Below, piece after piece: positions 11,422 to 56,408 of a DNA stretch of 64,000 nucleotides (its first letter is position 1; every line of letters begins with the position of its first letter). This DNA comes from Atopobiaceae bacterium (GTDB taxonomy: Bacteria > Actinomycetota > Coriobacteriia > Coriobacteriales > Atopobiaceae), in contig JAWRIT010000020.1 in the NCBI GenBank assembly GCA_040268355.1, forward strand, positions 470-64,469, given 5' to 3'. The position numbers and the translations under genes are program-made. Below the pieces are notes generated by a model that did no database searches, had not been told where the DNA came from, and was given only the letters and a program-made list of their open reading frames with translations.

Positions 11422-12042
11422 TCACTCTTGTTCGAACAGTCCCCTGACAAAGCAAGTGGCCAGGGTTTCCATCGCCTCAGCATAGCCGGGGAAGTCCCGC
11501 TCGCTCACGCGCATGTCCACGAAGTAGAGCAGCTCATAGGCCCGCATCGCGCGGTCGATCTTCTCCTTGGGAAAACCTGCCTCGGCCATCCTGCGCGCAA
11601 ACACTTCGACGAGGAACTGGTAGAAGGGATAGCCTCGCTGCCCCTCAGCCGACAGGAAGTGCGCGTGGAGCTTGTCGGCTATGGCCGGATTCTCCCACTC
11701 CGAGATGATCCTGTTGCTCGAGATGAGTCTGAAGGTGCAATCGAACAACTGCCCGACCACGACGACCGGCTCTGCCGACCAATCGACCTCGTCCATGATC
11801 CGCTGCCGCATGCGGTTGTTCTCCTCGATGAAGACGTCCAAGAAAACCTCGTCCTTCGAGGCATAGTAGTTGTAGAAGCTACCAACGGCGACGCCAGCCT
11901 TCCGGGCGATCTCGGCGATGCTCGCCGCCTTGTAGCCCTTGGATGTGAACACCTGCCGTGCGGCCAGCGCCAAAACCTGCTTCTTGTCCTGTTCCACCGG
12001 TCCCCCCGCGAAATGAATGAATTTGAACGATCGTTCATTCAT
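11422..12042 (-). CDS. TetR/AcrR family transcriptional regulator
   Basis: The N-terminal HTH FTSKGYKAASIAEIARKAGVAVGSFYNYYASKDEVF is canonical TetR_N. Confidence 0.9.
   Translation of the reverse strand: MNERSFKFIHFAGGPVEQDKKQVLALAARQVFTSKGYKAASIAEIARKAGVAVGSFYNYYASKDEVFLDVFIEENNRMRQRIMDEVDWSAEPVVVVGQLFDCTFRLISSNRIISEWENPAIADKLHAHFLSAEGQRGYPFYQFLVEVFARRMAEAGFPKEKIDRAMRAYELLYFVDMRVSERDFPGYAEAMETLATCFVRGLFEQE
12014..12041. promoter_or_regulatory. TGAATGAA-N12-TTCATTCA palindrome, copy 2, overlapping the tetR start codon
   Basis: Same 8-bp arms and same 12-nt spacing as copy 1. The spacer overlaps a second perfect palindrome, GAACGATCGTTC (12025-12036). Confidence 0.45.
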
Positions 12043-12278: not shown

Positions 12279-13178
12279 ATGCAGGACTTCATTTCGGTGA
12301 AACAGGCCGCTGGCAAGTGGGGCGTATCGGAGCGGTCGGTGCGCAACTACTGTGCGCAAGGACGCGTACCCGGAGCCTTCATCTCCGGCAAGACCTGGAA
12401 TATCCCTGCCGACGCGGAGAAGCCAGGCAGGAGGACGGCGGCAAAACCCAGGCAGCGGAAGCTACTGCAGATATTGCGCGACGAGAAGGACGCGAGGATG
12501 CCTGGCGGCATCTACCACCGCCTGCAGATAGACCTCACCTATAACTCCAATCACATCGAGGGCAGCAGTCTCACGCGCGACCAGACGCGCCTCATATTCG
12601 AGACCCGGACCATCGGCCCGCAGGAGGGCGCGGTGAACGTCGACGATGTGATAGAGACGGTGAACCACTTCAACTGCATCGACTACGTTATCGACACGGC
12701 AGGCAGGCGGCTGACTCAGGCATATGTCAAACGGCTCCATCTCATGTTGAAGACCGGCACCAACGACGCCATGCGCGAATGGTTCACCGTAGGCGACTAC
12801 AAGCAGCTCCCCAACGAGGTCGGCGGCGTCATGACCGCCGAGCCTGAGGAAGTGGAGGGGGCAATGACCGATCTTTTGGACTGGTACGAGGCCCGGGAGC
12901 AAATCGGCATGAACGACATCCTGGAGTTCCACTGGCGCTTCGAGCGCATCCATCCCTTCCAGGACGGAAACGGACGCGTCGGCAGGCTCATCATGCTGAA
13001 GGAGTGCCTCAAGCACGACGTAGTGCCCTTCGTCATCACCGACGAGATCAAGGCATTCTACTACCGAGGCCTCGCGGAATACCGCCGTGAGCCGGGATAC
13101 CTCGAAGGCACGGCACTCAGCGCCCAAGACCGCTTCAAAAAGGTGTTGGACCAGTTCAGAATTCCGTACGAAGATTAG
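12279..13178 (+). CDS. Fic family protein with N-terminal HTH
   Basis: Active-site motif HPFQDGNGRVGR. The N-terminus (VKQAAGKWGVSERSVRNYCAQGRVPGA) is an excisionase/MerR-type HTH. SNHIEG fits the (S/T)xxxE(G/N) inhibitory-helix motif. Confidence 0.9.
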   Translation: MQDFISVKQAAGKWGVSERSVRNYCAQGRVPGAFISGKTWNIPADAEKPGRRTAAKPRQRKLLQILRDEKDARMPGGIYHRLQIDLTYNSNHIEGSSLTRDQTRLIFETRTIGPQEGAVNVDDVIETVNHFNCIDYVIDTAGRRLTQAYVKRLHLMLKTGTNDAMREWFTVGDYKQLPNEVGGVMTAEPEEVEGAMTDLLDWYEAREQIGMNDILEFHWRFERIHPFQDGNGRVGRLIMLKECLKHDVVPFVITDEIKAFYYRGLAEYRREPGYLEGTALSAQDRFKKVLDQFRIPYED

Positions 13179-14921: not shown

Positions 14922-15266
14922 CTTCCGTCAGATAGCTTCGCACGTGCCGAGCAGCCTGACCACCAACCGAAGGTGGAATTCATCGGCTTAGTCTGTCAAG
15001 GACGGTTGGCAAAGCGCCTTGCATGAGTTCGTTCTATGGCTGCTGCCCGTGACGGCTGCGGGGCAGCGGGGAGCAACCGGCAGCAGCAGCCAAGCGATGG
15101 CCAGCTGCTTGCAATCGACTTCGGAAAAGGCGGTGGGGCTCGCGTGAGTCCGGCGGTATCGTATGGGTTGATTTTGTCGTGCAAAGTCAACAGCAAATCC
15201 CTTGCTCGGCCAAGAACCCCCTCGTATCCTCGAATCGAAGCCAAGCGGTTGTCGAGGAGGATTCGC

Positions 15267-16376
15267 ATGCAGACCGACATCGCCATCTCCCAAAACATAG
15301 CACGGATGCGCAAGGAGCAGGGATTCACCCAAGAAGACCTCGCCACGTTCCTCGGCGTGACGAAGGCGTCGGTCTCGAAATGGGAATGCGGGCAGAGCTT
15401 CCCCGACATAGCGCTGCTCCCCAGAATCGCCACGTACTTTGGCGTGAGCATCGACGAGCTGATGGGCTACGCACCGCAGATGACCAAGGCCCAAGTGCGC
15501 GCCACGTACCTGAAGCTCCGAGACGTGTTTGCGAGCGAGCCCTTCGATGACGCCCACGACGCATGTCGCGAAATCGCGAAGAAGTACTGGTCCTGTCCGC
15601 CGCTGCTCGTGCAGCTGGCGGTCCTGTACCTCAACCATGCCGCCGAGGCTCCCACCGAGGCAAAGCGAGACGCATTCCTGAAGGAGGCCGAGGGGTACTG
15701 CCGAAGGACGATGGATTTGGACTCCGACTCGACCACCATCCGTCACGCGAACGCGCTCTTGGCCGCCCTCCTGCTCGCCCAGAACAGGCCCGAAGAGGCC
15801 GTAGAGCGGCTCGAAGGCGCACTGGATCCGGCCCTTGGGGAGCGGTCCCTGCTCGCGCAGGCCTACCTCGCCCAGGGGATGGCGGAAGAGGCCGAACGCT
15901 GCACGCAGGTGAGCATATTCGAGAGCCTCGTCGCCCTGATGAACGGCCTGCCGATGCTGGCAAGTCTGTGCGCATCCGACGCTGGGCGCCTGGAGGAGGC
16001 GTACGTTCGCACACTCGCCGTCATCGAAGCGTTCGAGTTCGAGGAGGCGTGGGCGAATTGCCCGGCGGTGTACGCCACCTTTGCGGCGACCTTCGCCGCG
16101 GGCGGCAATACGGAGCGCGCATACGAGTGCCTCGAGCACTACGTACGTGTCGTGGGAAAGATGCAGTTCCCACCGAGACTGCACGGGGACGAGTTCTTCG
16201 ACAAAGTGGACGATTACCTGGAAGATCTCGACCTGGGAGGCAACGCGTCGCGCAACGAAGAGCTGATCAAGAGGTCGGCGATCTCCGGCATCGAGCACAA
16301 CCCCGCGTTTGCGGGCATAGCCGACGAGCCGCGCTTTAGGCAGCTGGTCGCTGACCTACGTGGGAGGCTGCAATGA
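15267..16376 (+). CDS. XRE-family HTH regulator with helical-repeat C-terminal domain
   Basis: Start at ATG 15267 (GAGGAGGA upstream). IARMRKEQGFTQEDLATFLGVTKASVSKWECGQSFP, then a ~280-aa TPR-like helical region. Confidence 0.8.
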   Translation: MQTDIAISQNIARMRKEQGFTQEDLATFLGVTKASVSKWECGQSFPDIALLPRIATYFGVSIDELMGYAPQMTKAQVRATYLKLRDVFASEPFDDAHDACREIAKKYWSCPPLLVQLAVLYLNHAAEAPTEAKRDAFLKEAEGYCRRTMDLDSDSTTIRHANALLAALLLAQNRPEEAVERLEGALDPALGERSLLAQAYLAQGMAEEAERCTQVSIFESLVALMNGLPMLASLCASDAGRLEEAYVRTLAVIEAFEFEEAWANCPAVYATFAATFAAGGNTERAYECLEHYVRVVGKMQFPPRLHGDEFFDKVDDYLEDLDLGGNASRNEELIKRSAISGIEHNPAFAGIADEPRFRQLVADLRGRLQ

Positions 16377-17281
16377 ACACGCAGGCCGCCAGGAAGCGCG
16401 TGCTCGTCTTTTTGGCGATCACGTTCGGCATCAGTTGGACCTTGCTGATCGCCGGTGGCATCGCGACCGGCTCCTTCGAGGCGGGAGAATCCGCATCGCC
16501 CGTCATGCTCGGCATGCTCGTGCTCACGATGTTCACGCCGCTCGTTGGCGCGCTGCTGGCCAACGCCATCGTGGGGAAGGACGCTCGCATCGACCTCGCG
16601 CTTCGACCACGCATCAAGGGAAACGTCAAGCATTACCTACTCGCGTGGTTCGGCCCGGCCGTGGTGGTGGTCGCAGGGACCGCCGTGTTCTTCACCGCAT
16701 TCCCGAGCTGGTTCGACCCACGCGCCGGCTCGCTCGCCACGTCGCAGCTCGCAGCCGACGCCGGCCAGGTGACGGAGGGCAGGGCTCCCCTGGTCGCGGC
16801 GGCGACGGTGGCTTCCGCCGTGCTGGTGGCGCCGCTCATCAACATGGTCCCCGCATTCGGCGAGGAGGCCGGCTGGCGTGGCATGCTGTTCCCGTCGCTG
16901 TGCGAGCGCTTCTCCCCGCGAGATGCTGCGGTTGTCTCGGGGATCATCTGGGGAGTCTGGCATGCCCCCGCCATCTGCATGGGGCACAACTACGGAATGG
17001 CGTACCCGGGCTTCCCCGTGGCGGGCATCCTCGTGATGGTCCTGCTCTGCACGGCGTTTGGCGCTTGTCTCTGCCGGCTGAGGATGCGTTCGGAAAGTGT
17101 CTGGCCGTGCGCGCTCGCTCACGGCGCCTTCAACGCCGTGGCGAACATAGGCATCGTGCTCTGCGCCGTCGATCCGACCCCGCTCGGGCCGTCCCCGCTG
17201 GGTCTTGTCGCAGGCATACCGGTCATCTTCCTGGGGCTCTGGTGCTTGGTGCGCCTGAGGGATCTGCCAGCGCAGTCATAG
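16373..17281 (+). CDS. CPBP family intramembrane glutamic endopeptidase (CAAX/Abi-type)
   Basis: Motifs FGEEAGWRG and IIWGVWH in a polytopic membrane protein. ATGA overlap with the upstream XRE gene. Confidence 0.85.
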   Translation: MNTQAARKRVLVFLAITFGISWTLLIAGGIATGSFEAGESASPVMLGMLVLTMFTPLVGALLANAIVGKDARIDLALRPRIKGNVKHYLLAWFGPAVVVVAGTAVFFTAFPSWFDPRAGSLATSQLAADAGQVTEGRAPLVAAATVASAVLVAPLINMVPAFGEEAGWRGMLFPSLCERFSPRDAAVVSGIIWGVWHAPAICMGHNYGMAYPGFPVAGILVMVLLCTAFGACLCRLRMRSESVWPCALAHGAFNAVANIGIVLCAVDPTPLGPSPLGLVAGIPVIFLGLWCLVRLRDLPAQS

Positions 17282-18036: not shown

Positions 18037-18984
18037 TCAGTGAAGGTCGAGTCGCAGGTCGACGAGGACGCGGGACAGGTCACCCTGCACGACAAAGGAG
18101 CGGTTGCCGAGCTGCGCGGGAGCTGATCCCTTCGCCAGATTCACCACGCCTAGGCGGGTATTCTCGTGTGCCTGAGCCATGCGCCAGAACGGCAGCGTGA
18201 TCACTGCGGGCGTCATATCGCCCACACCCAGGCTCAGGAGCAGCACACGCTTGCCCGACGCCAAGCGCTCACGCACGAAGTCCTGGTAACGACCTAACTC
18301 CCCTTGCCAGGCTTCGCCCTGCAGGAAGGTGTCATCGCGAATCCAAGGCATCATCTGCCAGCCACATTCGGGACAGCGCGGCACCAGATCGCTCGGAACG
18401 CGCTGGTCACCGTCTGTTGCGGCAACCATAGCATTCACCAGCTCCTGGCTGGGGTAGAGATGGTCGTGGCAAGGCTGACTGCACTGGAAGTAGCCCGCAT
18501 CGCCCTGGAAGCGCGCCACGCGCTCCATGGGGAAGCCAGCGCGCTCGAACTGTCCGTCCACGTTGGTGGTGATGATGAAGTAGTCCTTCTCCTCCAGCAC
18601 GGCAAGCAGGTCCCGATAGGCCTGGCCTGCGGGTGCCTGCTGCATAAACTGCAGGTAGCGCGCGTAATAGGCCCACTGCGACTCAAGCGAGGGATACAGG
18701 TAGTAGTAACCCTCCCCCATCGAACGAAAGCCGTACTTCTTCTTGAAGGCGGCGAACTCGAGATCGAAGACAGGTACGTCGTGGTAGTGGTTGTTGCCGT
18801 CAGCGCTCGAGAGGCCTGAACCCGCACCCACCACGACGGCGTCGGCCTCTGCGATCTCCTGAGCGAGGCGCTGCACCTGCGAGCGGTACGCTTCGCTGCC
18901 CGTTGTCTCTCGACCCCGTGCCGCTTCTTCGGCATTGGGCTGGAAGAAGCAGAAGCTCTCGGGACGTCCCCCTGCCTTACCCAT
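18037..18984 (-). CDS. SIR2-like protein, paralogue 1
   Basis: GAGSGLS (NAD-binding Gly-rich), TTNVDG, and a zinc ribbon CSQPC...CPECG. The position of the catalytic His of sirtuins reads FQGD. Start at ATG 18984 (GAAGGAG upstream), overlapping the tetR stop by 8 nt. Confidence 0.75.
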   Translation of the reverse strand: MGKAGGRPESFCFFQPNAEEAARGRETTGSEAYRSQVQRLAQEIAEADAVVVGAGSGLSSADGNNHYHDVPVFDLEFAAFKKKYGFRSMGEGYYYLYPSLESQWAYYARYLQFMQQAPAGQAYRDLLAVLEEKDYFIITTNVDGQFERAGFPMERVARFQGDAGYFQCSQPCHDHLYPSQELVNAMVAATDGDQRVPSDLVPRCPECGWQMMPWIRDDTFLQGEAWQGELGRYQDFVRERLASGKRVLLLSLGVGDMTPAVITLPFWRMAQAHENTRLGVVNLAKGSAPAQLGNRSFVVQGDLSRVLVDLRLDLH

Positions 18985-19522
18985 GACGAACTCCTTCGTA
19001 TCCGGCGGCAATGAAGTCGCGGATAAGCGCCTGAGCCTGCAAGAACTCTTGCCCGCGCCTCCAGCCCAAAGCCTGGTTCACGGCGAGATTGCCATTGGCG
19101 GTAAAGGCAAAGAGGGTCTGCGCATCCCGTTCGGACAGGCCCGTGCGCTCCATGATGCTGGACACGCCCTCGGCCTCACCGCGCGCCACCACACGCCGTG
19201 CGACAAAGGGATAGAGTTCGCGGTCGGTGTAGAGCAGGCGATAGTCCTCGTTGACCGGAACTCGCTGGCACATGCTCACGGGCGTCGTGCCGTCAAGCAT
19301 CGGCTCGGCATCAATCGCCTCGTCGACGACCTCCTCGAGCAGCGCATACTTGTCCTCGTAGTGCAGGTAGAAGGTCCCGCGGTTGATCTCGGCGCGCTTG
19401 CAGACCTCAGCCACACTCGTCTTGCCAAAGCCTCGCTCGTGCAGCAGCTCAAAAAAGGCCTGCTTGATGACCTGCTTGGTATAACGCGTGCGCCGGTCTT
19501 CGCGCCTGGGCTTCCCCGCCAT
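18977..19522 (-). CDS. TetR/AcrR family transcriptional regulator
   Basis: FFELLHERGFGKTSVAEVCKRAEINRGTFYLHYEDKYAL. Start at ATG 19522 (GGGGAG upstream). Confidence 0.9.
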   Translation of the reverse strand: MAGKPRREDRRTRYTKQVIKQAFFELLHERGFGKTSVAEVCKRAEINRGTFYLHYEDKYALLEEVVDEAIDAEPMLDGTTPVSMCQRVPVNEDYRLLYTDRELYPFVARRVVARGEAEGVSSIMERTGLSERDAQTLFAFTANGNLAVNQALGWRRGQEFLQAQALIRDFIAAGYEGVRHG

Positions 19523-19559
19523 GACCACTCCCCATATCGACTCTGATCTTGGCTTGATT

Positions 19560-19812
19560 ATAGACAGATGTTCAGATTCCATCAATCTGTTGATCTAAAG
19601 ACAGAAAGGGTCACCATGCCAGGGAAAGCAAGCCCAGACACTCGCAGCTGTTCGCAATGCTCTTCCTACGTCACGCAATGAACAGGGGCGTACATCCGTT
19701 GAGGATTTAACAGCTCCGCATCGCTGTCCATTTCTGAACAATCCTGAGCAATTGCCTGTTGTGAGCGTCAGTCTTCCTGGGAATATCTATGCATAGACAC
19801 TTGTTCAGCTTC
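19560..19812. promoter_or_regulatory. divergent tetR / SIR2-2 control region with repeated TGTTCAG-containing motifs
   Basis: ATAGACAGATGTTCAGATTC (19560-19579) and ATAGACACTTGTTCAGCTTC (19793-19812) are identical at 16/20 positions. An inverted copy, TCTGAACAAT, lies at 19733-19742. Confidence 0.4.
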
Positions 19813-19867
19813 TTTCATTCTGTTGAGTAAAATATGACCGCTTCACCTGGGCCATCAAGGAGGAGAC

Positions 19868-20842
19868 ATGCCACAGGGACAAACCCTTTACGAGGAGCTC
19901 GTCAACATGGCGGGCTACAACTACAGCCGCTACTATCAGTACTACGCGCAGGGCGGCGTGCCGGTGGAGCTCTCCACGCGCGAGGAGCCCTACAAGGAGC
20001 AGATCGCCAAGCTTGCCACCCAGATCCAAGAGGCGGACGTGATTGTCGTTGGCGCGGCAGCGGGCCTTTCCGCAGCCGGGGGCGGCGACTTCTATTACGG
20101 TGACTCCCCCTCATGGCGCGAGCATTTCGGCAAGTACACCAAAAGGTTCGGCTTCGAGGGTGCCTTCGTGGGCATGCGGCATCGCTGGAAGTCGCCCGAG
20201 GAGCGCTGGGGCTTCCTGGCGACCTTCCTGCACACCACACAGTCCGCACCGCTACGCAAGCCCTACCTCGACCTGGACGTTCTTGTGCAGGGCAAGGACT
20301 CCTTCATGCTCACCACCAACCAGGACACTCAGCTCGTGAAGCTCTACCCCGAGGACAAGGTCGCGCAGATCCAGGGCGATCACCGTTACTTCCAATGCTC
20401 CAAGCCCTGCTGCGACCATCTCTGGGATGCCGTGGAGCCCGTGAACCAGATGTTTGAGGCCATGGGCGATGGCTTCGAGGTGCCCACCGAACTCATTCCC
20501 CGCTGTCCGCATTGCGGTGCCGAGGCCTTCCCTTGGGTGCGTGGCTACGGCAACCTGCTGGAGGGCGAGCGCTACCACGCCGAGTACGCCAAGGCCGGCA
20601 CCTTCATCGAGGCACAGCGCGACCGCAAGGCGCTCCTCCTCGAAATCGGCGTGGGTCGCATGACCCCCATGTTCATCCAGGAACCTTTCTGGAACCTCAC
20701 GCTCGCCTACCCCCACGCGCGCTACGTCACCATCAACAGCGAGCACGCCCTCCTCCCCCGGCAAATCGAGGACAAGGGCATGGCCATCAAAGCCGACATC
20801 GCGCAGACGCTGATCGACACGCGCAAGGCATTGGGGAGGTAA
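19868..20842 (+). CDS. SIR2-like protein, paralogue 2
   Basis: GAAAGLS, TTNQD, IQGD at the catalytic-His position, CSKPC...CPHCG. Collinear with paralogue 1 over the full length. Confidence 0.75.
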   Translation: MPQGQTLYEELVNMAGYNYSRYYQYYAQGGVPVELSTREEPYKEQIAKLATQIQEADVIVVGAAAGLSAAGGGDFYYGDSPSWREHFGKYTKRFGFEGAFVGMRHRWKSPEERWGFLATFLHTTQSAPLRKPYLDLDVLVQGKDSFMLTTNQDTQLVKLYPEDKVAQIQGDHRYFQCSKPCCDHLWDAVEPVNQMFEAMGDGFEVPTELIPRCPHCGAEAFPWVRGYGNLLEGERYHAEYAKAGTFIEAQRDRKALLLEIGVGRMTPMFIQEPFWNLTLAYPHARYVTINSEHALLPRQIEDKGMAIKADIAQTLIDTRKALGR

Positions 20843-20844
20843 GC

Positions 20845-21759
20845 ATGGGCAAGACAGACCTGCTTAGCGGCGGCATGACAGCCGAGAAGGTCACACGCAT
20901 CCGCGAGGTGCTAGACGCCGCCGACCTGGTGATCGTGACCGCAAGCAACGGCCTCGACATGAGCGAGGGACTCAATATATTCCGCCCTGACCAGCATTTT
21001 ATTGAGACATACGGCGACCTTGCAACGGCCACCGGCGCCATGAGCATCCTGCAGGGCATGGCCTCACCAGGGATTGCCCCAGAACAGCGCTGGGCCTGGT
21101 TTGCCCGCTTCGCCCAGGTGGAGTGGCTTAGCTACGAACCCACGCCCCTCATGCGCACGGTGCGTGAGCTCGTGGGCGAGAAGGACCACATGGTCGTGAC
21201 GTGCAACATTGATGGCCGCCTTGCCAAGGTGTTCGACGAGCAGCGCATCGTTGAGACCGAAGGATCCGTTCGCCAGCTCACCTGCTCTGCACACTGCTGT
21301 GACGAGCGCCTTGATGCGACTGAGGCCATGCGCGCCGCCAATGCAAGGATTGAAGACGGCCGCGTACCCACCGAGCTCATCCCCCGCTGTCCCCACTGCG
21401 GTGCCATGCTTACGCCCGCAACAGACGAGATGCTTCTCGCCCACCCCGACGGAGAGCTCAGAGAGCGCCTCGCCCTTCTCAACCAGAAGATCGAGCGGGC
21501 GCATGGCAAGAATATCGTGGTGCTTGAGCTGGGCATCGGCGCACGCAACCAAGCCATCAAGGTCCCGACGATGGACCTCGTTGCCACAGAGGAACGTGCC
21601 ACGTACATCACGTTCAACTACAACGAGGTCTTCATCCCCAAAACCATAGCCGACCGCTCCATCGGCATCTCCGGCGACCTGGGACACGCCCTCGCCCAGC
21701 AGCGCAGACACCCCGATGATGGAAAGCGCAGAGGACGACGCCCTCTCCATCATGGGTGA
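20845..21759 (+). CDS. SIR2-like protein, paralogue 3 (most divergent)
   Basis: Internal ATG 20845 of ORF 20512..21759 (GGGGAGG upstream, 2 nt after the paralogue-2 stop). TASNGLDMS, TCNIDG, TEGS at the catalytic-His position, CSAHC...CPHCG. Confidence 0.7.
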   Translation: MGKTDLLSGGMTAEKVTRIREVLDAADLVIVTASNGLDMSEGLNIFRPDQHFIETYGDLATATGAMSILQGMASPGIAPEQRWAWFARFAQVEWLSYEPTPLMRTVRELVGEKDHMVVTCNIDGRLAKVFDEQRIVETEGSVRQLTCSAHCCDERLDATEAMRAANARIEDGRVPTELIPRCPHCGAMLTPATDEMLLAHPDGELRERLALLNQKIERAHGKNIVVLELGIGARNQAIKVPTMDLVATEERATYITFNYNEVFIPKTIADRSIGISGDLGHALAQQRRHPDDGKRRGRRPLHHG

Positions 21760-22147
21760 AAGGGCGAAGCTGTGGCAGCCTAAGGTCCAGCTCATCGCAT
21801 CGGCTGATCCAACAATGCCCAAGGGGCTTGACCTCTTGAGCATTTTTCACCCAAACATATCCCCTCACCTGCCTGCGACTCTGCTGCAACGAAGCGATGG
21901 CACCGTGGGCCTTCCCCTGGGGAGGTCATAACGACTGCCACGCCATGGCGAGGCTTGGAGCCGGACGTCGCAGCAAGCCTCTCGCCGCTGTCGTATCATG
22001 TGTCGCGACCACAGAAGGAAAGTCGAGGCCTCGTGGTTTGAGCGCAGGTGTCCGCTCCTGCGGCTTCCCGGCCATCGGGGCGGCGCACTCTATGCGCGGC
22101 GCGCATGCCGGTCTTGCAGCCGGACACGATGGAGGGGCAACCAGAAC

Positions 22148-23119
22148 ATGAAAGATTGCGCGGACATCCTCAGATCCGTGTGCGCCCAGCTTGGCTTGAG
22201 GAAGGCCGATGCGAACCCCTACGAATGCGGAGAATACCTCGTGGGAAACGGCATCGACGTCACGGGCTACTTCTGGTTCCTCCCCTATGAGCGGCATATC
22301 GCCATCTCCACGTGCGATTTCTCATTTTGTCGGGACGTGGTCGCCAATTTTCCGGAAAAGACCCGCTACATAGCGCTCCGGCTCGAATATGCGAAGCACC
22401 TTCCCTCCGGCAGGATCATCGCCTTTCTGGAGGAGAGCGGCGGCAGCGTGAACGCCCACATGAGACGCGGTATGCGGGTGGCCTACACCGAGGTCATGTA
22501 CCTTCCGTCGTTCTACCATCAGCACCTTTCCGAATGCTTCAGCGGATACCCGGAAGAACCGTCGAAGATCCTGCGGGACATGGGCGGCGAGCACAACTGG
22601 CCCGCCTCAATGATGACGGTCCTCAATGACATCCGCAAAAGCCAGCTCAGCGGCACGGCAAAGGAGCTCTACGTTGTGGCGAAGGCATATGAGCTCATGG
22701 CCGTGCTCCTCAAGATGGGCAGCGACCGCCTTCCAGCTCGAAGCGCCGACTTCGAGAGCGTCACCTCAGCCGTGGAATACATAAACGAGAACTACACGGG
22801 AAGCATCGAGCAACGGGACCTCGTCCGCATGGCGAACATGAGCGCCACCAAGCTCAAGCGCCTCTTCAAGTTGGTCACCGGACTCACCATCACTCAGTAC
22901 GTCGTGGAGCGCAAGACCGACCTGGCAATGCACCTCCTTGCCGACACCGACCTGCCTGTTGCCGACATCGCGCGAAAGTCCGGGTTCAAGACACCGAGCG
23001 GCTTCGCGACGTCCTTCAAGCGACAGGTGGGCATGACGCCCAGGGAATACCGCCTCTCCATGCGTGCGGGCGTCCTGCACAACCCCTCTTCCATCGGCAG
23101 CCTCACATTTGACTCGTGA
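22148..23119 (+). CDS. AraC family transcriptional regulator
   Basis: C-terminal double HTH (LVRMANMSATKLKRLFKLVTG...IARKSGFKTPSGFATSFKRQVGMTPREYR). Start at ATG 22148 (GGAGGGG upstream). Confidence 0.9.
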   Translation: MKDCADILRSVCAQLGLRKADANPYECGEYLVGNGIDVTGYFWFLPYERHIAISTCDFSFCRDVVANFPEKTRYIALRLEYAKHLPSGRIIAFLEESGGSVNAHMRRGMRVAYTEVMYLPSFYHQHLSECFSGYPEEPSKILRDMGGEHNWPASMMTVLNDIRKSQLSGTAKELYVVAKAYELMAVLLKMGSDRLPARSADFESVTSAVEYINENYTGSIEQRDLVRMANMSATKLKRLFKLVTGLTITQYVVERKTDLAMHLLADTDLPVADIARKSGFKTPSGFATSFKRQVGMTPREYRLSMRAGVLHNPSSIGSLTFDS

Positions 23120-24836
23120 GCAGCTCGACGTAGCGAGCGTAGACACCGCCGCGCCTTCTGAGCGCTTCGTCGGTGCCGCGCTCGGCGATCTCGCCATCCT
23201 TGATGACGAGAATCTGGTCGGCGTTGCGGACCGTCGCGAGCCGATGCGCGATGACCAGCAGGGTCTTCCCGCGGACGAGCTCCCCGATGGCCGCCTGGAT
23301 GTAGCTCTCGTTATCCGGGTCGACGCTCGCCGTCGCCTCGTCGAGGATGACCACCGGTGCGTCTTTGAGTATGCACCTCGCGATGGAGATCCGCTGCCGC
23401 TCGCCACCCGACAGGTTCGCGCCGCCCTCGCCGACCAGGGTGTCGAACCCGTCTGGCATCTCCTCGATGAAATCGAGGCAGCGCGCCTTGCGTGCCGCCT
23501 CGACGACCTCCTCCCGGGTCGCGTCGGGCCTGCCGAGCGCGATGTTGTTGTACACCGTGTCTCGAAACAGGTAGACCCGTTGGAAGACCATGCCGACATG
23601 CTCCATGAGCTCGGAGAGGGGCACATCGCGCACGTCGACCCCCCGGACGCGAAGGCTGCCGCCGGTCACGTCCCAGAAGCGCGTCAGCAGCTGCGCCACC
23701 GTCGACTTTCCCGAACCCGACGGCCCGACAAGGGCGGTCATGGTGTCCTTTCGCATGCTCAGCGAGATGCCGTGCAGGACCTCTTCGTCGGCGTACGCGA
23801 ACCGCACGTCGTCGTACTCTACCTCGGGGGCATCGCCTCCCCTCTCGGGCGGGATGTGGGAGCACCCCTCGTCGGGGAGCTCGATCTCGGCAAAAAGGGC
23901 GTCCATGCGATCGAGCGCCGCGTTCATGATCGTGAGCTGGGCGCTCTGGTTGTAGAGGGCCCTGAACGGCCCGAACAGGTCGAAGACGAACAGGAGCACT
24001 CCCAAAAGGGCGGTGGCCGCGAGCGTGCCCTGGGAATGGAGGAAGAACGACAGGGCCAGCACGGCGACCGAGCCAAGCCCGTAGAGCAGGTTCAGGGCCA
24101 CGAACCATGGGTTGTAGCGCTTCTCGAACCCTATGCTCGTCCGGCGACTTTGGGCGAAGCTCTCCGTCAGCTCGGCGGCCCGCTCTCCGAGGAGGTTGTA
24201 CGTCTTTGCGATGCCTATGCCCTCTGCGAAGTCGAGCACCGACTGGGTGAGCCTCTCACTCTGCTCCTGCCGTTTTACGGACTCGTCCAGCGCGGTGCCC
24301 TTCATGCCGCGGGCCACGAGCAGAATCAGCGCCGAGACGAACACGGCGGCCAGGCCAAGCCAGGGGGAGAGCAGCATGAGCAGGGCGAGCATGACGATCT
24401 CCGAGAAGATGTAGTTCATCATGTTCGCGATGTCACCCATGCAGCTCTGCTCGACGTAGACCATGTCCACCGATAGGATCGAGCTGATCCGCCCAATGTT
24501 GCCTTCGGTGTAGAAGCCCATCGGCAGCCTCAGCAAATGCCGGCCAAGCTCGAGCCGCTTCTCGGCGAAGATCTCGTACCCAGCTCCCGACTGCAACCGG
24601 TCCGTGACGTTCTGGAGCACCATCTGCGCCGCCACGCAGACGAGGAATATCGTCCCGATCAACAGGCACGTTCGCGCCGTGATGGTGCCGTTGTAGAAAG
24701 ACGCGAGGGCGAGGAAGGAAAGGACTATCGGGGCCTTCGACAGCATCGACTTGACGAAGGCGAGCACGAACGCGGTTCGTATCGCAGCGCGCTTGGCACC
24801 TGCGAGGGAGAGGATCCTCCTGATGAGCGGAATCAT
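23103..24836 (-). CDS. ABC exporter, fused permease/ATPase half-transporter
   Basis: Six-TM domain, then GPSGSGKST, LSGGERQ, VVILDEAT. Confidence 0.9.
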   Translation of the reverse strand: MIPLIRRILSLAGAKRAAIRTAFVLAFVKSMLSKAPIVLSFLALASFYNGTITARTCLLIGTIFLVCVAAQMVLQNVTDRLQSGAGYEIFAEKRLELGRHLLRLPMGFYTEGNIGRISSILSVDMVYVEQSCMGDIANMMNYIFSEIVMLALLMLLSPWLGLAAVFVSALILLVARGMKGTALDESVKRQEQSERLTQSVLDFAEGIGIAKTYNLLGERAAELTESFAQSRRTSIGFEKRYNPWFVALNLLYGLGSVAVLALSFFLHSQGTLAATALLGVLLFVFDLFGPFRALYNQSAQLTIMNAALDRMDALFAEIELPDEGCSHIPPERGGDAPEVEYDDVRFAYADEEVLHGISLSMRKDTMTALVGPSGSGKSTVAQLLTRFWDVTGGSLRVRGVDVRDVPLSELMEHVGMVFQRVYLFRDTVYNNIALGRPDATREEVVEAARKARCLDFIEEMPDGFDTLVGEGGANLSGGERQRISIARCILKDAPVVILDEATASVDPDNESYIQAAIGELVRGKTLLVIAHRLATVRNADQILVIKDGEIAERGTDEALRRRGGVYARYVELLTSQM

Positions 24837-27800
24837 TTGACACCCCTTTCGACCAGGACGGCGTCCCGCTTGTTGTCAACGCCCCAGCAGGCACTTTCTA
24901 CGGCTGCTTGCCAGAGCTTCGAATACCGGTCGCTCGAGGCCAGGAGCTGCTCATGTGTTCCTGTGGCTTCCACGCGTCCGCCGTCCATCACGACGATCTG
25001 GTCCGAGTCCTTGACCGACGGCAACTTGTGCGCGATCACCACGACGGTTTTGCCCCGGATGATGCCCGCGATGGCGGCCCGCATCTTCCGTTCGTTTTCG
25101 GGGTCGATGAAGGCCGTCGCCTCGTCCAGCACGACTATGGGCGCATCCTTGAGCAACGCCCGTGCGAGCGCTATGCGCTGCCGCTCGCCGCCCGACAGCT
25201 TGGCCCCTCCCGCGCCGGCGTTCGTACGGATGCCGTCTGCCAGCCGTGCGAGGAACTCCCCGCATTGCGCCTGCTTTGCGGCAGCCTCCACCTCCTCGTC
25301 CGTTGCCTCGGGCCTGCCGATGCGGATGTTCTCGAGGATGCTCGTGTTGAAGAGGTAGAGGTCCTGCGAGACGTAGGAGATCAGGCCGTTCAAGGACGCG
25401 AGGCTCATGTCCCCCACGTCCTGGCCGCCGATGCGGACACGTCCCCCGGACACGTCGTAGTAGTGCACCAGCAGTTTGGCGAGCGTGGACTTCCCGCTGC
25501 CCGATTCGCCCACTATCGCGGTCGTGGTGCCGTCGGCAATGTCCAGGCTGACGCCCTTTAAGACCTCGACGTCCCCGTAGGAGAACCTGACGTCGGTGAA
25601 GGCTATGGAGTGTCCCTCGCCCGCAAACGGCCCATCGCCCTGCTGCAGGGATTCCGCCGAGAACACCTGCTCCAGGGCATCTATCTTGAAGTTGATCTGC
25701 GGCACGCTCCCCATGAAGTTCACCGCGCGTATGAGCGGCGTGCCCGCCGCTATGCACATGCAGAGCGCGAGGACGAGGTCGGGGACGGTGGAGATGCCCA
25801 TCGTCACGAACCATGCCCCTATGGGCAGCGTGAACAGGCACACACAGGGGATTATGCTGCCGTACACCGCCATCCACGGCCAGCAGACCTTGTACCACGC
25901 CAGCGTGAAATCGCGGTAGTCCGCTACCGAGGCCTGGTAGCGCTCGTAGGACTGCCCACCCTTGTTGAAGACCTTCGCGACTTCCATTCCGTTCACGTAT
26001 TCGATGATGGTGTCGTTCATCCTCTGGCCTGCGGCGTAATACGCGCCCATGCGCGCCATGCCCGCCTTGTACATCCTCCCCATGGCGAACAGGCCTATTG
26101 GCAACGTGAGCAATGAGAGCAGCGCGAGCTTCCAGTCGACGAAGAACAGTGCTGCGAAGATGACGACCGGGACGAGGGTGGTCGCGAACCCCTCGGGGAG
26201 CGCGTGCGCGATCATCGTCTCGAGGGAGTCGATGTCGTCCACGAACATCTTCTTGATCGATCCTGTCCCCATGTCCTGAACGGCCCCCAGGGGCTGCCTC
26301 TCCAGCTTGCCCTGAAGCGACCTGCGCAGGTTCTCGAGCGTGTGGTAAGCGCCCTTGTGCGAAAGGTCCAGCCCCCATGCGTAGAGCACGGCATAGAGGA
26401 GCGCGCAGAGGGCCATGCCTCCCAGCCGCGTTGCGAGGAACGCGGGCTCGATCGGCCCTTTGGCGAGCACCGCCACGACGAGCTCGTAGCTAACGTAGAA
26501 CGGGATGACGTTTGCGAGCGTCGCCAAGACCAGCACGGCCGCCGCGGCGTACGTGTACCTCTTGTGCGGGCCCGCGTACTCTAATAGTTTGGAGAACATG
26601 CTCCTGCCCCCTTCCTCTTCGTGTCGATGCTTTCTCCTGGATGCGCGCTGGCCGTCGTGCAGCCGCGTTGCCCGGTCGGCCGCATCGTCGATGAAGTACT
26701 GCCTCACGCGCTCCCTGCCCTCTGCGTCAAGCGCGTAGAAGGACCTCACATGTCCGTTTTCCATGTGGAGCACGTGCGTGGAGCATCCCAGGATGAGCTC
26801 TAGGTCGTGGGTGATGACCGCGATGACCCTGCCCGCGCCTCTGGCCGACTCCATGAGCTGGAAGTAGCGCTCCATGTTCTCGCGGTCGAGGCCCGACGTG
26901 GGCTCGTCGCAGAAAAGGAGCTCTTTGTTCGAGTAGAGCGCGGATGCGATTGCCAGACGCTGCTTCTGCCCGCCGGACAGCGTGCTCGGGTGCCGGTCCG
27001 AGAGATCGGCCAGGCTCAGGCACTCGAGCAGCCTGCGCCTCTCGCCGGCGTCGTCTCGGGAGCTGCCCATCGCCACCTCATCGGCCACCGATGGTGCGAA
27101 GAGCTGTCGGTTGACGTCCTGCATGACCACGAAGCTCAGGTCGCTGAGTTCGCCCCTCTGCCGAACGGCCCCTTCGAACTGCACGGTCCCGCTACATTCG
27201 AGCAGACCCGACAGGCATCCGACCAGCGTGCTCTTGCCAGCGCCGTTCTCCCCGACGACGGCGACGATGCTGTCATCGGGGATCTCGAGGTGGGGTATGG
27301 AGAGCACGGTCTTGCCGTCGCGCCTGCAGGTCAGGTCTCGCACGGCAAGAGCACACCCCGTCCGGCGGCCCGACCGCTCCCGGCGCTCGCGGCCCCGCGG
27401 TTCGAGATTCCGAAGGTCCGTGCTCCGAAGGCCCAGCCCCTCAAGCTCCCCGTCCTTGAGGTGGACGAGCTCCTCGGGAGTGAAGGCGCAGGTCGCCCTG
27501 CCACCTTCCATGCACACGAACCTGTCTGCAAGGCCTGTCAGATAATGGAGCCTGTGCTCCGCCACGACGATGGTCTTGCCCGCGGACTTGAGCTCTTGGA
27601 GCGCACGGGTAAGACGCACTATCGAGGATATGTCCATGTTCGAAGCCGGTTCGTCCAGCACGAGGACGTCGGGTCCGGTGGCGTGGACCGACCCGACGGC
27701 TATCTGCTGCCTCTCGCCGCCCGACAGCTTGAAGATATCCCTGTCGACCAGGTGCTGCAGCCTGAGGTCGGCTACTGCGCGCCCAACCCGATCCACGATT

Positions 27801-28153
27801 TCCTCTCTGGGCAGCGCCTGGTTCTCGCATCCGAAGGCGAGCTCGCCGGTTGTGTCGAGGTTGAAGAACTGGCTCCTTGGGTTCTGGAACACGCTCCCCA
27901 CGACCCTCGAGATGTCGGACAGCTCGGAGTTGGCGATGTCGAGCTCGCCCACCCACACGTTTCCTGAGAGCTCGCCTTCGTAGTAGTGCGGGACGAGCCC
28001 GTTGATCGCCCTGGTGACCGTCGTCTTCCCACACCCGCTCTTCCCGCAGAGCACCACGAACTCACCCTCGCCGATATCGATGCTGAAGTCGTCGAGGCTC
28101 TTCTCTCCGTTGGCATTGGGATAGCTGCAGCTCACATGTTCCAGCGTGATCAT
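24833..28153 (-). CDS. fusion of a duplicated ECF-type ATPase (two NBDs) with an ABC exporter half-transporter (TMD plus third NBD)
   Basis: One uninterrupted 1106-aa frame. NBD1: GKSGCGKTT / LSGGERQ / VLVLDEP. NBD2: GENGAGKST / LSGGQKQ / LLFCDEP. A TM domain follows, then NBD3: GESGSGKST / LSGGERQ / IVVLDEAT. The internal ATG at 26599 is preceded by GGAAGGGGGCAGGAG. Confidence 0.8.
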   Translation of the reverse strand: MITLEHVSCSYPNANGEKSLDDFSIDIGEGEFVVLCGKSGCGKTTVTRAINGLVPHYYEGELSGNVWVGELDIANSELSDISRVVGSVFQNPRSQFFNLDTTGELAFGCENQALPREEIVDRVGRAVADLRLQHLVDRDIFKLSGGERQQIAVGSVHATGPDVLVLDEPASNMDISSIVRLTRALQELKSAGKTIVVAEHRLHYLTGLADRFVCMEGGRATCAFTPEELVHLKDGELEGLGLRSTDLRNLEPRGRERRERSGRRTGCALAVRDLTCRRDGKTVLSIPHLEIPDDSIVAVVGENGAGKSTLVGCLSGLLECSGTVQFEGAVRQRGELSDLSFVVMQDVNRQLFAPSVADEVAMGSSRDDAGERRRLLECLSLADLSDRHPSTLSGGQKQRLAIASALYSNKELLFCDEPTSGLDRENMERYFQLMESARGAGRVIAVITHDLELILGCSTHVLHMENGHVRSFYALDAEGRERVRQYFIDDAADRATRLHDGQRASRRKHRHEEEGGRSMFSKLLEYAGPHKRYTYAAAAVLVLATLANVIPFYVSYELVVAVLAKGPIEPAFLATRLGGMALCALLYAVLYAWGLDLSHKGAYHTLENLRRSLQGKLERQPLGAVQDMGTGSIKKMFVDDIDSLETMIAHALPEGFATTLVPVVIFAALFFVDWKLALLSLLTLPIGLFAMGRMYKAGMARMGAYYAAGQRMNDTIIEYVNGMEVAKVFNKGGQSYERYQASVADYRDFTLAWYKVCWPWMAVYGSIIPCVCLFTLPIGAWFVTMGISTVPDLVLALCMCIAAGTPLIRAVNFMGSVPQINFKIDALEQVFSAESLQQGDGPFAGEGHSIAFTDVRFSYGDVEVLKGVSLDIADGTTTAIVGESGSGKSTLAKLLVHYYDVSGGRVRIGGQDVGDMSLASLNGLISYVSQDLYLFNTSILENIRIGRPEATDEEVEAAAKQAQCGEFLARLADGIRTNAGAGGAKLSGGERQRIALARALLKDAPIVVLDEATAFIDPENERKMRAAIAGIIRGKTVVVIAHKLPSVKDSDQIVVMDGGRVEATGTHEQLLASSDRYSKLWQAAVESACWGVDNKRDAVLVERGVK

Positions 28154-28848
28154 GCGAACCCTCCGCGGGCGAGGACGTACAGGCAGACTGCGCCTGCGAT
28201 GAAGGCCCAGTCGATATGCCCCATCCGGACGTCGGCGATGGAGGTCCGTCGCCGGGTGCTGTCAAGACCGCGCGCCATCGCCGCGGATGCGAGCTCGTCC
28301 ATGGCCGTCATCGAGCTGAACAGCAGGGGCACGAGGATTCGCTCGATCGTGAGCGCCGGATGGCGCAGCACGCTTCTCCACGTGACGCGCATGCCGCGGA
28401 ACGACATCGCCTGCATCACGCCCTCGTACTCCTCGCGCACCGTGGGAACGAATCGAAAGACCGTCGCGATGGGGATCACGAGGGCCATGGGCAGGCGCAT
28501 CTCCTGCATCGCCGCCATGAACTCGCCCACGTCGGTGGTGCGCCCGACGTAGTTGAACGCCATGATGACGAGCATCATGATCCGCACGATGACGGCGAGC
28601 GACATGACCACGACGAGCGCTGCCTCCGGTTCGGACGACCTGAGGGTTGCCTCGAGCAACAGCACCGCCACGAATGCGACGAGGCTGCGCAACGCAAAGC
28701 GTCGCTGCCCCTCGCAGGCGAGCAGGAACGCGATCAGGCAGGCGAAGAGCAGGTTGGGCGCAAGCGCTGACGAGCGTATCGCCAGCAGGTCGACGACGAT
28801 GAAGAGGACGAGCCTTGCGCGGGGGTCGAGGCGCAACCCGGGCAGCAT
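28150..28848 (-). CDS. ECF transporter transmembrane (T) component, CbiQ/EcfT family
   Basis: 232-aa polytopic protein taken from the internal ATG 28848 of ORF 28150..29349. C-terminal AMxARG-type motif (ELASAAMARGLD). ATGA overlaps on both sides. Confidence 0.75.
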   Translation of the reverse strand: MLPGLRLDPRARLVLFIVVDLLAIRSSALAPNLLFACLIAFLLACEGQRRFALRSLVAFVAVLLLEATLRSSEPEAALVVVMSLAVIVRIMMLVIMAFNYVGRTTDVGEFMAAMQEMRLPMALVIPIATVFRFVPTVREEYEGVMQAMSFRGMRVTWRSVLRHPALTIERILVPLLFSSMTAMDELASAAMARGLDSTRRRTSIADVRMGHIDWAFIAGAVCLYVLARGGFA

Positions 28849-29426
28849 CAGGCGATCCCGTCCCTCTCGAAGTGCTTCTTGAACAGCTTTGCGGCAATGA
28901 AGGCTCCCACGAGCGCCCCGACGACGGCCTCCACGACGAGCGCCGCGAGAATCCAGTCGGGCACGAGGGTCTGCAGGGTCTGCACGTACTCCTGCCCGTA
29001 ATAGTTCGCGGCGATGGAGAGGAACTGGTCCTTGGCGAACACAAGCATGAGGAACGGGCCGACCATGTTCAGGTTGAAGACGACGTAGGACAGGCGGAAC
29101 AGCTTCATGGACTCGTAGCTGCCCGCACGTGCGATGAGTTCGGCGGCGATGGCGGCCACCGCCGCCCAAGCCATGGCATACGGGGAGCTCGTGCACGCAA
29201 GAAGGATGAACAGCACGCCCAGGATGAGGATGGCGCCGGGCTTGCGGATGCGGGTGACACACAACAGGTAGACGGTCGCACCGACCAGGCCCACGAACAA
29301 GGGGGCCATCAGGTAGAGCACCGGGACCGCCGCGAGCGCCACGACACACACCAGCACGACGACGAGGTAGATGGCGCCAAAGGCACCGGCAAAGATCAGG
29401 TCCTTCGTGTTCATCTTTCGTTTCAT
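28848..29426 (-). CDS. MptD-family (Trep_Strep) putative ECF transporter S component
   Basis: 192-aa six-helix protein (MNTKDLIFAGAFGAIYLVV...) at the head of the T / ATPase / exporter string, the context I remember for this family. Confidence 0.65.
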   Translation of the reverse strand: MKRKMNTKDLIFAGAFGAIYLVVVLVCVVALAAVPVLYLMAPLFVGLVGATVYLLCVTRIRKPGAILILGVLFILLACTSSPYAMAWAAVAAIAAELIARAGSYESMKLFRLSYVVFNLNMVGPFLMLVFAKDQFLSIAANYYGQEYVQTLQTLVPDWILAALVVEAVVGALVGAFIAAKLFKKHFERDGIA

Positions 29427-38988: not shown

Positions 38989-39002
38989 AGCCGGGTGACA
39001 CT

Positions 39003-39155
39003 GTGCTTCACAAGGCCTTCGGATACGGGCGGATCATCGACATCGATGAGTCCTACGTGGAAGTCACGTTCGACTCGGACAACAAGAAGAAGAAATCGTC
39101 TCGCAAGTTCATCTTCCCTGGGGCGTTCCACCAGGGGCTGCTGCAGATTGGGTAG
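39003..39155 (+). CDS. 50-aa ORF resembling the small beta-barrel tail found at the C-terminus of UvrD-like helicases
   Basis: Not in the ORF track (<60 aa). The frame opens at 38949 and reads LEPGDTVLHKAFGYGRIIDIDESYVEVTFDSDNKKKKSSRKFIFPGAFHQGLLQIG-stop. The only canonical start is GTG 39003. It may instead be the frameshifted tail of the helicase. Confidence 0.35.
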   Translation: MLHKAFGYGRIIDIDESYVEVTFDSDNKKKKSSRKFIFPGAFHQGLLQIG

Positions 39156-39162
39156 GTGTGTC

Positions 39163-43557: not shown

Positions 43558-43586
43558 CACATACTCCGTTCCCTCGCACCTTGTGA

Positions 43587-43620: not shown

Positions 43621-43668
43621 CCGCTTTCTCTGGCCGCCCAAAGTCTTAAACGGAAGGCAGGACAGAGC

Positions 43669-44202: not shown

Positions 44203-44235
44203 GCCGGCACGCCCGGTAGGAAGTGAGGAACCACC

Positions 44236-56406: not shown

Positions 56407-56408
56407 CC

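Follow-up and report, generated by a model that had tools for sequence, protein, structure and literature searches.

Class M sirtuins and related systems

The subject of this report is a locus of three sirtuin-like genes, here called A, B and C, and a gene for a TetR-family repressor, found in a 64,000-nucleotide stretch of DNA from an Atopobiaceae bacterium (contig JAWRIT010000020.1 of assembly GCA_040268355.1, positions 470 to 64,469; the whole stretch is referred to as the window). The closest described relatives of the three proteins are the class M sirtuins (SirTM), to our knowledge the sole sirtuin class with protein ADP-ribosylation as its main activity. Class M is defined by a QG motif in place of HG and by linkage to a Zn-macrodomain (Rack et al. 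2015, PMC4518038). In the same study, Asn118, Gln137 and Arg192 were needed for ADP-ribosyl transfer and the Gln137-to-His mutant was dead. SirTM with Gln at the His position had no deacylase activity, and SirTM operons were induced by oxidative stress (PMC4518038). GcvH-L is the only known SirTM target, and both targets and roles beyond the extended operon have been called unknown (PMC11490716).

By sequence and predicted fold, A, B and C are relatives of these ADP-ribosylating class M sirtuins, and C represents a distinct, invariant Glu-type class which also lacks the catalytic Arg. A described SirTM system has one enzyme, whereas here there are two or three paralogous subunits, one of which carries Glu and has no Arg. 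The local regulator is another difference, being TetR, Rrf2 or HxlR in the loci considered below. As judged from gene order and phylogeny, the triplet is a conserved operon of three ancient clades and not a local duplication. On balance it probably encodes an inducible, heteromeric, class-M-like, NAD-consuming ADP-ribosyltransferase system, placed here under TetR control and directed at a target outside the operon.

Mfs1 of Fusarium oxysporum (PDB 8RSN, PMC11490716) is the second-best PDB match after SirTM, with Gln and Arg at the catalytic positions. Its sirtuin is fused to a Zn-macrodomain, whereas the fusions found in the present family join C to B or involve an HD or cupin domain. Lactobacillal SirTM-like proteins have been sorted by three catalytic positions, and one resulting group, ‘NEX’, reads Asn-Glu-(Ala/Pro/Thr) and holds 20 sequences from 11 species (Olesen et al., bioRxiv 10.1101/252379). 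C reads Asn-Glu-Ala at the same three positions. In the available part of that preprint the NEX group is tabulated without operon context, pairing with a Gln-type protein, regulator or activity, and LBA1649 (XFP type) appears there as a different, probably inactive variant, distinct from the C type.

Full-text searches on SirTM, subscription-only papers aside, yielded only studies of macrodomain-linked systems, and the table of Olesen et al. is the sole trace of a C-type protein. Within that scope no description was found of a multi-paralogue operon, of the pairing and fusion of B with C, of control by TetR, Rrf2 or HxlR, or of linkage to HD, PncA and PncB genes. The Glu-type variant C has no characterised counterpart.

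Layout of the locus

The locus is formed by two divergent transcription units, tetR-A and B-C. Its features, in window coordinates, are listed below; HMM stands for hidden Markov model and ORF for open reading frame.

18037..18984, minus strand: gene A, A-clade SirTM-like sirtuin, 315 aa from ATG, motif FQGD (ORF; A-clade HMM score 420; 5A3A match)
18977..19522, minus strand: TetR-family repressor, 181 aa (PF00440, E = 7e-12)
19523..19867, no strand: divergent control region between the tetR-A and B-C transcription units (345 bp sequence)
19560..19593, plus strand: candidate TetR operator, copy 1, core ATAGACAGATGTTCAG at 19560-19575 (overlaps the predicted tetR-A promoter)
19793..19826, plus strand: candidate TetR operator, copy 2, core ATAGACACTTGTTCAG at 19793-19808 (60 nt upstream of the B start)
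19868..20842, plus strand: gene B, B-clade SirTM-like sirtuin, 324 aa, motif IQGD (ORF; B-clade HMM score 562)
20845..21759, plus strand: gene C, C-clade Glu-type SirTM-like protein, 304 aa, motifs TASNG, TCNID, ETEGS and GIGARNQ (ORF; 5A3A match)
21820..21838, plus strand: terminator-like hairpin followed by a T-run, 60 nt past the C stop (consensus scan only)

The four ORFs (A, tetR, B and C) are intact at these coordinates and show a coding-type bias in guanine-plus-cytosine (GC) content at third codon positions (GC3), in a window of approximately 62% GC. As the sequence-only reading of this DNA had described, A is overlapped with the TetR gene, and B and C stand in tandem 2 nt apart. The overlap of 8 nt comprises the tetR stop (TAA, 18979-18977) and the ATG of A (18984-18982). 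Because the A start overlaps the tetR end, the two genes are probably translationally coupled. A GAAGGAG ribosome-binding site lies upstream of the A start, and an alternative TTG start for this gene is present at 19011. On the other strand, B ends with TAA at 20840-20842, and the ATG of C follows after the 2 nt gap. The ribosome-binding site for C, GGGGAGG, sits within the 3′ end of B. The hairpin at 21820..21838 probably ends the B-C transcript. A public collection contains a gene product with exactly the length of the TetR protein, 181 aa.

Relationship of A, B and C to SirTM

The three proteins had been called collinear, and alignment bears this out, with 35% and 28% identity of the other two to A. 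Against PDB 5A3A, the SirTM of Streptococcus pyogenes (SpySirTM, entries 5A3A-C), A matches at E = 8.7e-46 and C at E = 3.9e-17, with the Glu of C aligned to Gln137. A also matches 8RSN at E = 5e-24, and in the PDB search with A and C non-SirTM sirtuins appeared only at E > 0.01. For the SirTM of Staphylococcus aureus (SauSirTM) the E-values are 8.9e-42 with A, 9.2e-40 with B and 1.7e-25 with C. Given the two scores against 5A3A and the S. aureus matches to all three proteins, the likeness to SirTM is not due to chance.

The predicted fold of C gives the same result. Its AlphaFold model has a predicted local distance difference test score (pLDDT) of 92.7 and a predicted template modelling score (pTM) of 0.89. 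The best PDB match is 5A3A, with a template modelling score (TM-score) of 0.78/0.82, followed by Mfs1 (8RSN) at 0.69. No sirtuin other than 5A3A exceeds a TM-score of approximately 0.69, and SIRT5, SIRT3 and Sir2 reach approximately 0.55-0.65. A profile and structure comparison had been proposed with the sequence-only reading; once run, it placed SirTM closest by sequence and by predicted fold, ahead of sirtuin classes I-IV, class U and the SIR2_2 family. None of the aligned homologues has the basic 20-residue tail at the C-terminus of C (window 21700-21759), ending in …RRHPDDGKRRGRRPLHHG, and the model gives this tail low confidence.

General domain models recognise the family poorly. The Pfam SIR2 score of A is 20.5, under the cut-off of 24, and that of C is 24.9. 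B has no SIR2 match in Pfam at E < 1 and is recognised by no Pfam family. In public annotation the homologues are called ‘NAD-dependent protein deacetylase’, and database entries that carry this label, which number thousands, are almost certainly misnamed.

Catalytic residues and the NAD pocket

To place the catalytic positions, residues 15-290 of 5A3A were rebuilt from HMMER alignments and then aligned with approximately 200 homologues. The motifs that had been read from the sequence are all present: the Gly-rich nicotinamide adenine dinucleotide (NAD) loop (GAGSGLS, GAAAGLS and TASNGLD in A, B and C, respectively), the TxNxD block (TTNVD, TTNQD and TCNID) and the CxxxC...CPxCG zinc ribbon. 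The GIPxFR motif of other sirtuins is missing from all three, as had been stated. The reported loss of the catalytic His was also upheld by HMMER and MAFFT, which place Gln, Gln and Glu at the position of SpySirTM Gln137 and no His in register. A and B have QG in place of HG (FQGD and IQGD), and C reads TEGS. The statement of the earlier reading that Gln stands in place of the His in class M sirtuins is confirmed in PMC4518038.

Like SirTM, A and B have the equivalents of Asn118, Asp120, Gln137 and Arg192, the four zinc-binding Cys of the ribbon, the GVGxxTP loop and Asn258. In the GVGx[NT]TP form of this loop, the [NT] position is Met in both A (GVGDMTP) and B (GVGRMTP). The approximately 200 homologues fall into clades A, B, C and D, the last being a sister form that resembles B. 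Conservation in clades A, B and D is approximately 100% for Asn, Asp, Gln, Gly, the four Cys, Arg, GVGxxTP and Asn.

C keeps the Asn118 equivalent, a Glu-Gly pair, Asn258 and the four zinc Cys, and has lost the Arg192 equivalent. The sequence of its first NAD loop is ASNG, and the pyrophosphate loop is formed by GIGARNQ (GxGxRN). In the C clade, Glu and ASNG are each found in 85/85 members and Arg in none, and the altered pocket residues are constant over 85 to >290 diverse clusters. The invariants of the C family are the ASNG loop, Asn121, Glu139-Gly140, ELGxG...N and few others, at a mean column identity of 44%, and they fall in the motifs that form the NAD pocket of SirTM. In some C proteins the zinc ribbon has been lost while the pocket motifs are kept, as in the C part of the approximately 563-aa fusions P0126 and P0136 and in a free C of 232 aa in L091. 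Since the pocket motifs are invariant, C appears to be under strong selection on a modified nucleotide pocket and not to be a decaying copy.

Clades, distribution and operon conservation

The phylogenetic survey that had been suggested was carried out as a scan with a C-family alignment over one genome per species (GTDB), and genes were typed as A, B or C by three HMMs built in this analysis. A C-type gene is present in at least 593 species genomes. The hosts include Eggerthellaceae, other Coriobacteriia, Lachnospiraceae, Oscillospiraceae, Bacillaceae, Paenibacillus, Sporosarcina, Megasphaera and spirochaetes. As an operon, the three clades occur together in hundreds of species of Firmicutes, Coriobacteriia and spirochaetes. 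Homologue searches return three separate families, and several matches to A and to C lie on contigs of the same length. In a neighbour-joining tree A, B and C each form a pure clade, D groups with B, and SpySirTM is approximately equally distant from the A, B and C clades. On the clade HMMs the S. aureus SirTM scores 180-226, compared with 330-650 for clade members. The tree distances and this gap in score indicate that the three clades are ancient sisters of the characterised SirTMs and not their orthologues.

Gene neighbourhoods were surveyed in the 80 best-scoring loci of each of two scans, one anchored on C in species genomes and the other on B in metagenome contigs, with genes taken as plain ORFs. 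Among the C-anchored loci, a Gln-type paralogue on the same strand adjoins C in 78/80, B or D is present in 76/80 and the full triplet in 36/80. Common gene orders are B-A-C, A-C-B, D-A-C, B-C and D-C, frequently with gaps of 1-4 nt or small overlaps. TetR is divergent from B-C in Slackia heliotrinireducens (L004), and other arrangements include a TetR divergent from B-like, C and A genes, as well as consecutive A, B-like and C genes. Bacillaceae and Lachnospiraceae carry the operon on the chromosome in conserved synteny. The earlier description of three paralogues was right in that three SirTM-like copies are present; instead of a local expansion, they make up a widespread operon of three ancient clades.

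From the other anchor, C is found in 70/80 of the B-anchored contigs. Nine of the ten contigs without C have a flank of <1 kb on at least one side of B, so the missing C is mostly uninformative in these nine. Among them, L141 lacks C even with 5.4 kb of sequence downstream of B, and the tenth contig, L126, lacks C despite approximately 5 kb on each side of B. Natural fusions of the two genes also exist, with a C-type N-terminal and a B-type C-terminal part (P0125, P0126, P0136, P0151 and P0161, approximately 563 aa), some of them on 5-25 contigs. P0123 is a further fusion, and an exhaustive profile search added P0329, P0330 and P0352. B (or D) is paired with C nearly always, and A is a frequent third member. 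The mutual linkage from either anchor, the spacing of the coupling type and the natural fusions together suggest that B and C work together.

Genes that follow C in other genomes

In 25/80 loci the gene directly downstream of C encodes an uncharacterised protein of approximately 192 aa with an HD domain. A nicotinate phosphoribosyltransferase (PncB) is present in 19/80 and an isochorismatase-family nicotinamidase (PncA) in 11/80, often after the HD protein, and HD::PncA and A::HD fusions exist. This linkage supports the splitting of NAD+ with release of nicotinamide. The HD protein has the motifs HCARVLL, FHDxRR, YHDQDD and FKDADALDRFRLG (L034 8923-9504; L012 6967-8088; L046 8836-10305). Searches of PDB and NCBIfam gave no informative match for it, so an eraser role for this protein is speculation.

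Regulation

The linkage to TetR that had been noted in the window is real and conserved in evolution, for full-length TetR homologues stand beside such clusters elsewhere. The repressor has the features of its family, namely an N-terminal PF00440 helix-turn-helix, a divergent position and a palindrome-type motif upstream of B. Its homology to TetRs which flank SirTM-like clusters spans the whole protein and takes in the ligand-binding domain. Identity is 53-58% in Coriobacteriia-type loci (L004-L007 and L091; L006 is a metagenome-assembled genome of Eggerthellaceae) and 30-37% in loci of Lachnospiraceae and Oscillospiraceae and in C::B fusion loci. A TetR encoded on a Lactiplantibacillus plasmid matches that of the window at E = 2e-36 (phmmer).

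This plasmid, the conjugative NZ_CP023773.1 of L. plantarum (L174 5136-7308), carries the TetR gene, a Gln-type SirTM-like gene and a C-type::Cupin_5 fusion. An IS30 insertion lies between TetR and the operon, and the fusion is annotated only as ‘cupin domain-containing protein’.

The 345-bp divergent region of the window contains two copies of a 34-nt element, which are 82% identical. A predicted sigma-70-like promoter for tetR-A lies on the minus strand at 19585-19557. The core of the element, ATAGACA-N2-TGTTCAG, occurs exactly twice in the 64 kb window, compared with 0.11 occurrences expected by chance. A related palindrome, ATGAACA-N2-TGTTCAT, is matched at 12-13 of its 14 positions, 15-26 nt upstream of B, in L004, L006, L007 and L091, where the background is 3.5% of random 200-bp segments with ≥11 matches. 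The motif is conserved only among the loci with TetRs of 53-58% identity and is unrecognisable in the distant TetR-linked loci. From their repetition and placement we infer that the two sites are TetR operators.

Control by TetR of all three copies, as first proposed, fits the present locus, and the TetR subfamily is conserved. It does not extend to most other lineages, which have Rrf2 or HxlR in its place. In the 80 C-anchored loci the divergent regulator directly upstream of the operon is Rrf2 in 49, HxlR in 12 (Bacillaceae) and TetR in 6. The Rrf2 regulators are nearest to the thiol redox sensor HypR, and the HxlR regulators to RrpA and RrpB. This hint agrees with the oxidative-stress induction of SirTM operons (PMC4518038), and in this respect the regulators found here loosely suggest a link to stress similar to that of SirTM.

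Absence of the known SirTM partners

The partners of the known SirTM operons were searched for by phmmer with E. coli YmdB and the S. aureus Zn-macrodomain, GcvH-L, LplA2 and LLM as queries against 7,675 ORFs from the window and approximately 165 related loci. No macrodomain was found among these ORFs, and GcvH-L, LplA2 and LLM were likewise missing from the window and the related loci, unlike in the described SirTM systems. Pfam scans of the neighbouring genes gave no macrodomain. Two positive controls were recovered, and the macrodomain search was sensitive enough on this account: with YmdB as query, a SirTM-like::macrodomain fusion (P0371) is retrieved as well as the Zn-macrodomain of S. 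aureus (E = 1.4e-29). The lack of macrodomain, GcvH-L and LplA partners, as first seen by inspection of the translations, is in agreement with these direct searches. A macrodomain or the target could be encoded elsewhere in the genome, beyond the window and the fetched flanks.

In a phage collection, the only matches were to an S. aureus sequence with the canonical SirTM operon, which was used as a positive control and supplied the SauSirTM sequence compared above. This entry (L173, OR844992.1), labelled ‘Staphylococcus phage SA 1306 Kay’, is probably bacterial rather than phage DNA.

Proposed mechanism

In the mechanism proposed for this ADP-ribosyltransferase system, B and C would form a complex, which A would join or act alongside in parallel. 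The complex would cleave NAD+ and transfer ADP-ribose to a target other than GcvH-L, not encoded in the operon. C may bind NAD as a subunit for regulation or specificity, or may itself provide a second, Glu-based catalytic centre. Repression of tetR-A and B-C would come from TetR bound at the two ATAGACA-N2-TGTTCAG sites and would be lifted by a ligand or stress signal; Rrf2 (nearest HypR) or HxlR (nearest RrpA) takes the place of TetR in other lineages. HD, PncA and PncB, often co-transcribed elsewhere, would fit a pathway in which nicotinamide is released and recycled, and in place of the absent macrodomain the HD protein may be an eraser. The NAD-consuming or ADP-ribosylating function itself, which the sequence-only reading had suggested, is likewise what we infer from the homology.

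A more specific form of this proposal can be advanced only tentatively. It holds that B and C, with or without A, make up an unrecognised heteromeric sirtuin-fold enzyme in which C, with its invariant Glu, is a second active site or a sensor of NAD or ADP-ribose and works with a SirTM-like subunit of the Gln/Arg type. The enzyme would place an ADP-ribose mark on its target in a stress response set off by a redox or ligand trigger, the HD protein would erase the mark, and PncA and PncB would carry out the recycling.

Several observations weigh against the proposed ADP-ribosyltransferase system. HD, PncA and PncB genes were not found in the window, and the NAD-recycling argument is for this reason borrowed from other lineages. 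A-type genes are also found alone. In L023, L033, L044, L068, L073, L135, L147 and others, A appears as short ORF fragments while B and C are intact; these fragments could reflect pseudogenisation or assembly frameshifts. The fragmentation of A in many loci may mean that this gene is dispensable. For the regulators, similarity to HypR and RrpA lies under the curated family cut-offs, which leaves the redox link as only a hint. The surveyed loci are the 80 top-scoring ones of each scan. The metagenome contigs are redundant, so that their counts are not counts of independent events, and the clade typing depends on home-made HMMs applied to plain ORFs.

Alternative explanations

The best of the alternatives, although an unlikely one, is that the proteins act as an NAD+ glycohydrolase or make an ADP-ribose-derived signal, with no transfer to a macromolecule. 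The Glu of C would then be catalytic, and the system would adjust NAD or nicotinamide under stress. A catalytic Glu is used by the TIR and CD38-type NADases and by classical ADP-ribosyltransferases. This explanation would suit the Glu that is invariant in C, the loss in some C proteins of the zinc ribbon, which is part of the sirtuin substrate cleft, and an operon that encodes neither target nor eraser. It would also suit the co-transcription of PncA and PncB in many lineages and the HD phosphohydrolase directly after C; however, the recycling of nicotinamide is equally needed by a transferase. The complete SirTM transferase triad, including Arg192, is kept together with the zinc ribbon in A, B and D, where both are strongly conserved, and a PADLOC search finds no defence-type SIR2 match, both of which count against this explanation.

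It is rather improbable that the acceptor of the ADP-ribose is a small molecule (a xenobiotic, an antibiotic or a metabolite, for example), which would be detoxified or modified on induction in the manner in which Arr inactivates rifamycins. The dedicated TetR of the ligand type would fit such a role, as would the presence of the module next to a TetR gene on the conjugative Lactiplantibacillus plasmid, and ABC exporter genes and an AraC regulator adjoin the cluster in the window. Most lineages, however, have Rrf2 or HxlR regulators, which resemble redox sensors and not ligand-binding TetRs, and the chromosomal, syntenic position of the operon in Bacillaceae and Lachnospiraceae also counts against such a role. 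We know of no sirtuin that modifies small molecules.

Slightly less probable again is the view that the genes are redundant, independent SirTM paralogues, that C is a decaying pseudoenzyme and that the clustering has no functional meaning. The A-type genes that occur alone in places and the apparent fragmentation of A in many loci would be expected from it, and C is without two of the three catalytic residues. It is at odds with the constancy of the altered C pocket over the same 85 to >290 diverse clusters, with the co-occurrence of B and C whichever of them anchors the survey, with their repeated fusion and with a B-C spacing that suits translational coupling.

An anti-phage SIR2 defence system, which would deplete NAD on infection, is very improbable. 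The proteins have a sirtuin fold and presumed NAD+ consumption in common with ThsA, DSR1/2, SIR2-HerA and SPARSA (SIR2_2), and in some lactobacilli the genes are plasmid-borne. PADLOC gave no match to a defence family for A, B, C or TetR, after which the defence reading was rejected. No TIR, SLOG, HerA, pAgo or other sensor or effector partner was found among the neighbours by Pfam scans of the window and the surveyed loci, in line with what had been noted from the sequence. A, B and C lack the His on which the defence proteins depend; their nearest relatives are SirTM and not SIR2_2 of the ThsA/DSR type, and the operon keeps a stable, syntenic place on the chromosome together with salvage genes and its own repressor.

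The least probable explanation is that of ordinary NAD-dependent deacylases of the CobB/Sir2 type, for although the homologues are annotated as such and share with CobB, Sir2Tm and SIRT5 the Rossmann fold, the zinc ribbon, the TxNxD block, a TM-score of approximately 0.55-0.65 and weak HMM matches, A, B and C lack the catalytic His and GIPxFR, the NCBIfam CobB-type models give 20-40 bits against cut-offs of 221-395, and the Gln-type SirTM is without deacylase activity, its Gln-to-His mutant being inactive (PMC4518038).

Neighbouring genes

By Pfam, the neighbours in the window are an XRE-TPR regulator, a CPBP protease, AraC, Trep_Strep, Fic, a second TetR and a GyrI-like protein. The AraC gene (21998-23119) sits past the terminator-like site. 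It adjoins an exporter and Trep_Strep region on the minus strand (23103-29426), which contains ABC-type exporter ORFs (23103-28153; 577 aa and a fused 1106 aa, from translations) beside the cluster; the gene for the Trep_Strep membrane protein follows approximately 0.7 kb past the exporters. AraC, ArsR, CopA, radical SAM, DUF5131 and flavin reductase genes were considered as parts of the system and rejected, as their distance and orientation vary near the clusters. The recurrence of AraC, ArsR and the like is put down to shared synteny or to clustering driven by the helix-turn-helix.

On the other side of the cluster, an XRE-type helix-turn-helix (HTH) and TPR regulator (446-aa ORF) overlaps the start of a CPBP/Rce1-like intramembrane protease gene by 4 nt (15036-17281, plus strand), and the two are taken as a regulator-protease pair. 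A Fic/DOC protein with an N-terminal HTH, possibly an AMPylating enzyme, is encoded at 12279-13178 (plus strand), approximately 5 kb from the cluster. Just before the Fic gene, at 11422-12042 on the minus strand, stands an unrelated second TetR gene.

The GC content of the window is patchy between 34 and 52 kb. It is approximately 0.53-0.60 over 38000-52000 and approximately 0.69 over 52000-64000, with a step at approximately 52 kb which may mark a mobile or horizontally acquired segment. In the related loci, DNA-repair genes adjoin a SirTM-like gene or TetR in three unrelated contexts, as MGMT-type DNA_binding_1 genes in L001 (5249-5605) and L087 (4967-5275) and as a 3-methyladenine glycosylase gene in L090 (4687-5241). 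This adjacency may be coincidence or may reflect a link to DNA damage.

Significance

The family is large and conserved, with its C-type gene in at least 593 species genomes; its hosts, numbering in the hundreds, live in gut and soil, and human-gut metagenomes contain it commonly. If the more specific form of the proposal is right, ADP-ribosylation signalling by sirtuins would have a second branch that does not depend on a macrodomain and is abundant in the Lachnospiraceae, Oscillospiraceae and Coriobacteriia of the human gut and in Bacillaceae. The operon would offer a way into the cooperation of sirtuin paralogues, or of an enzyme with a pseudoenzyme, and into a possible HD-domain eraser. 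It would equally offer a way into new ADP-ribosylation targets in commensals.

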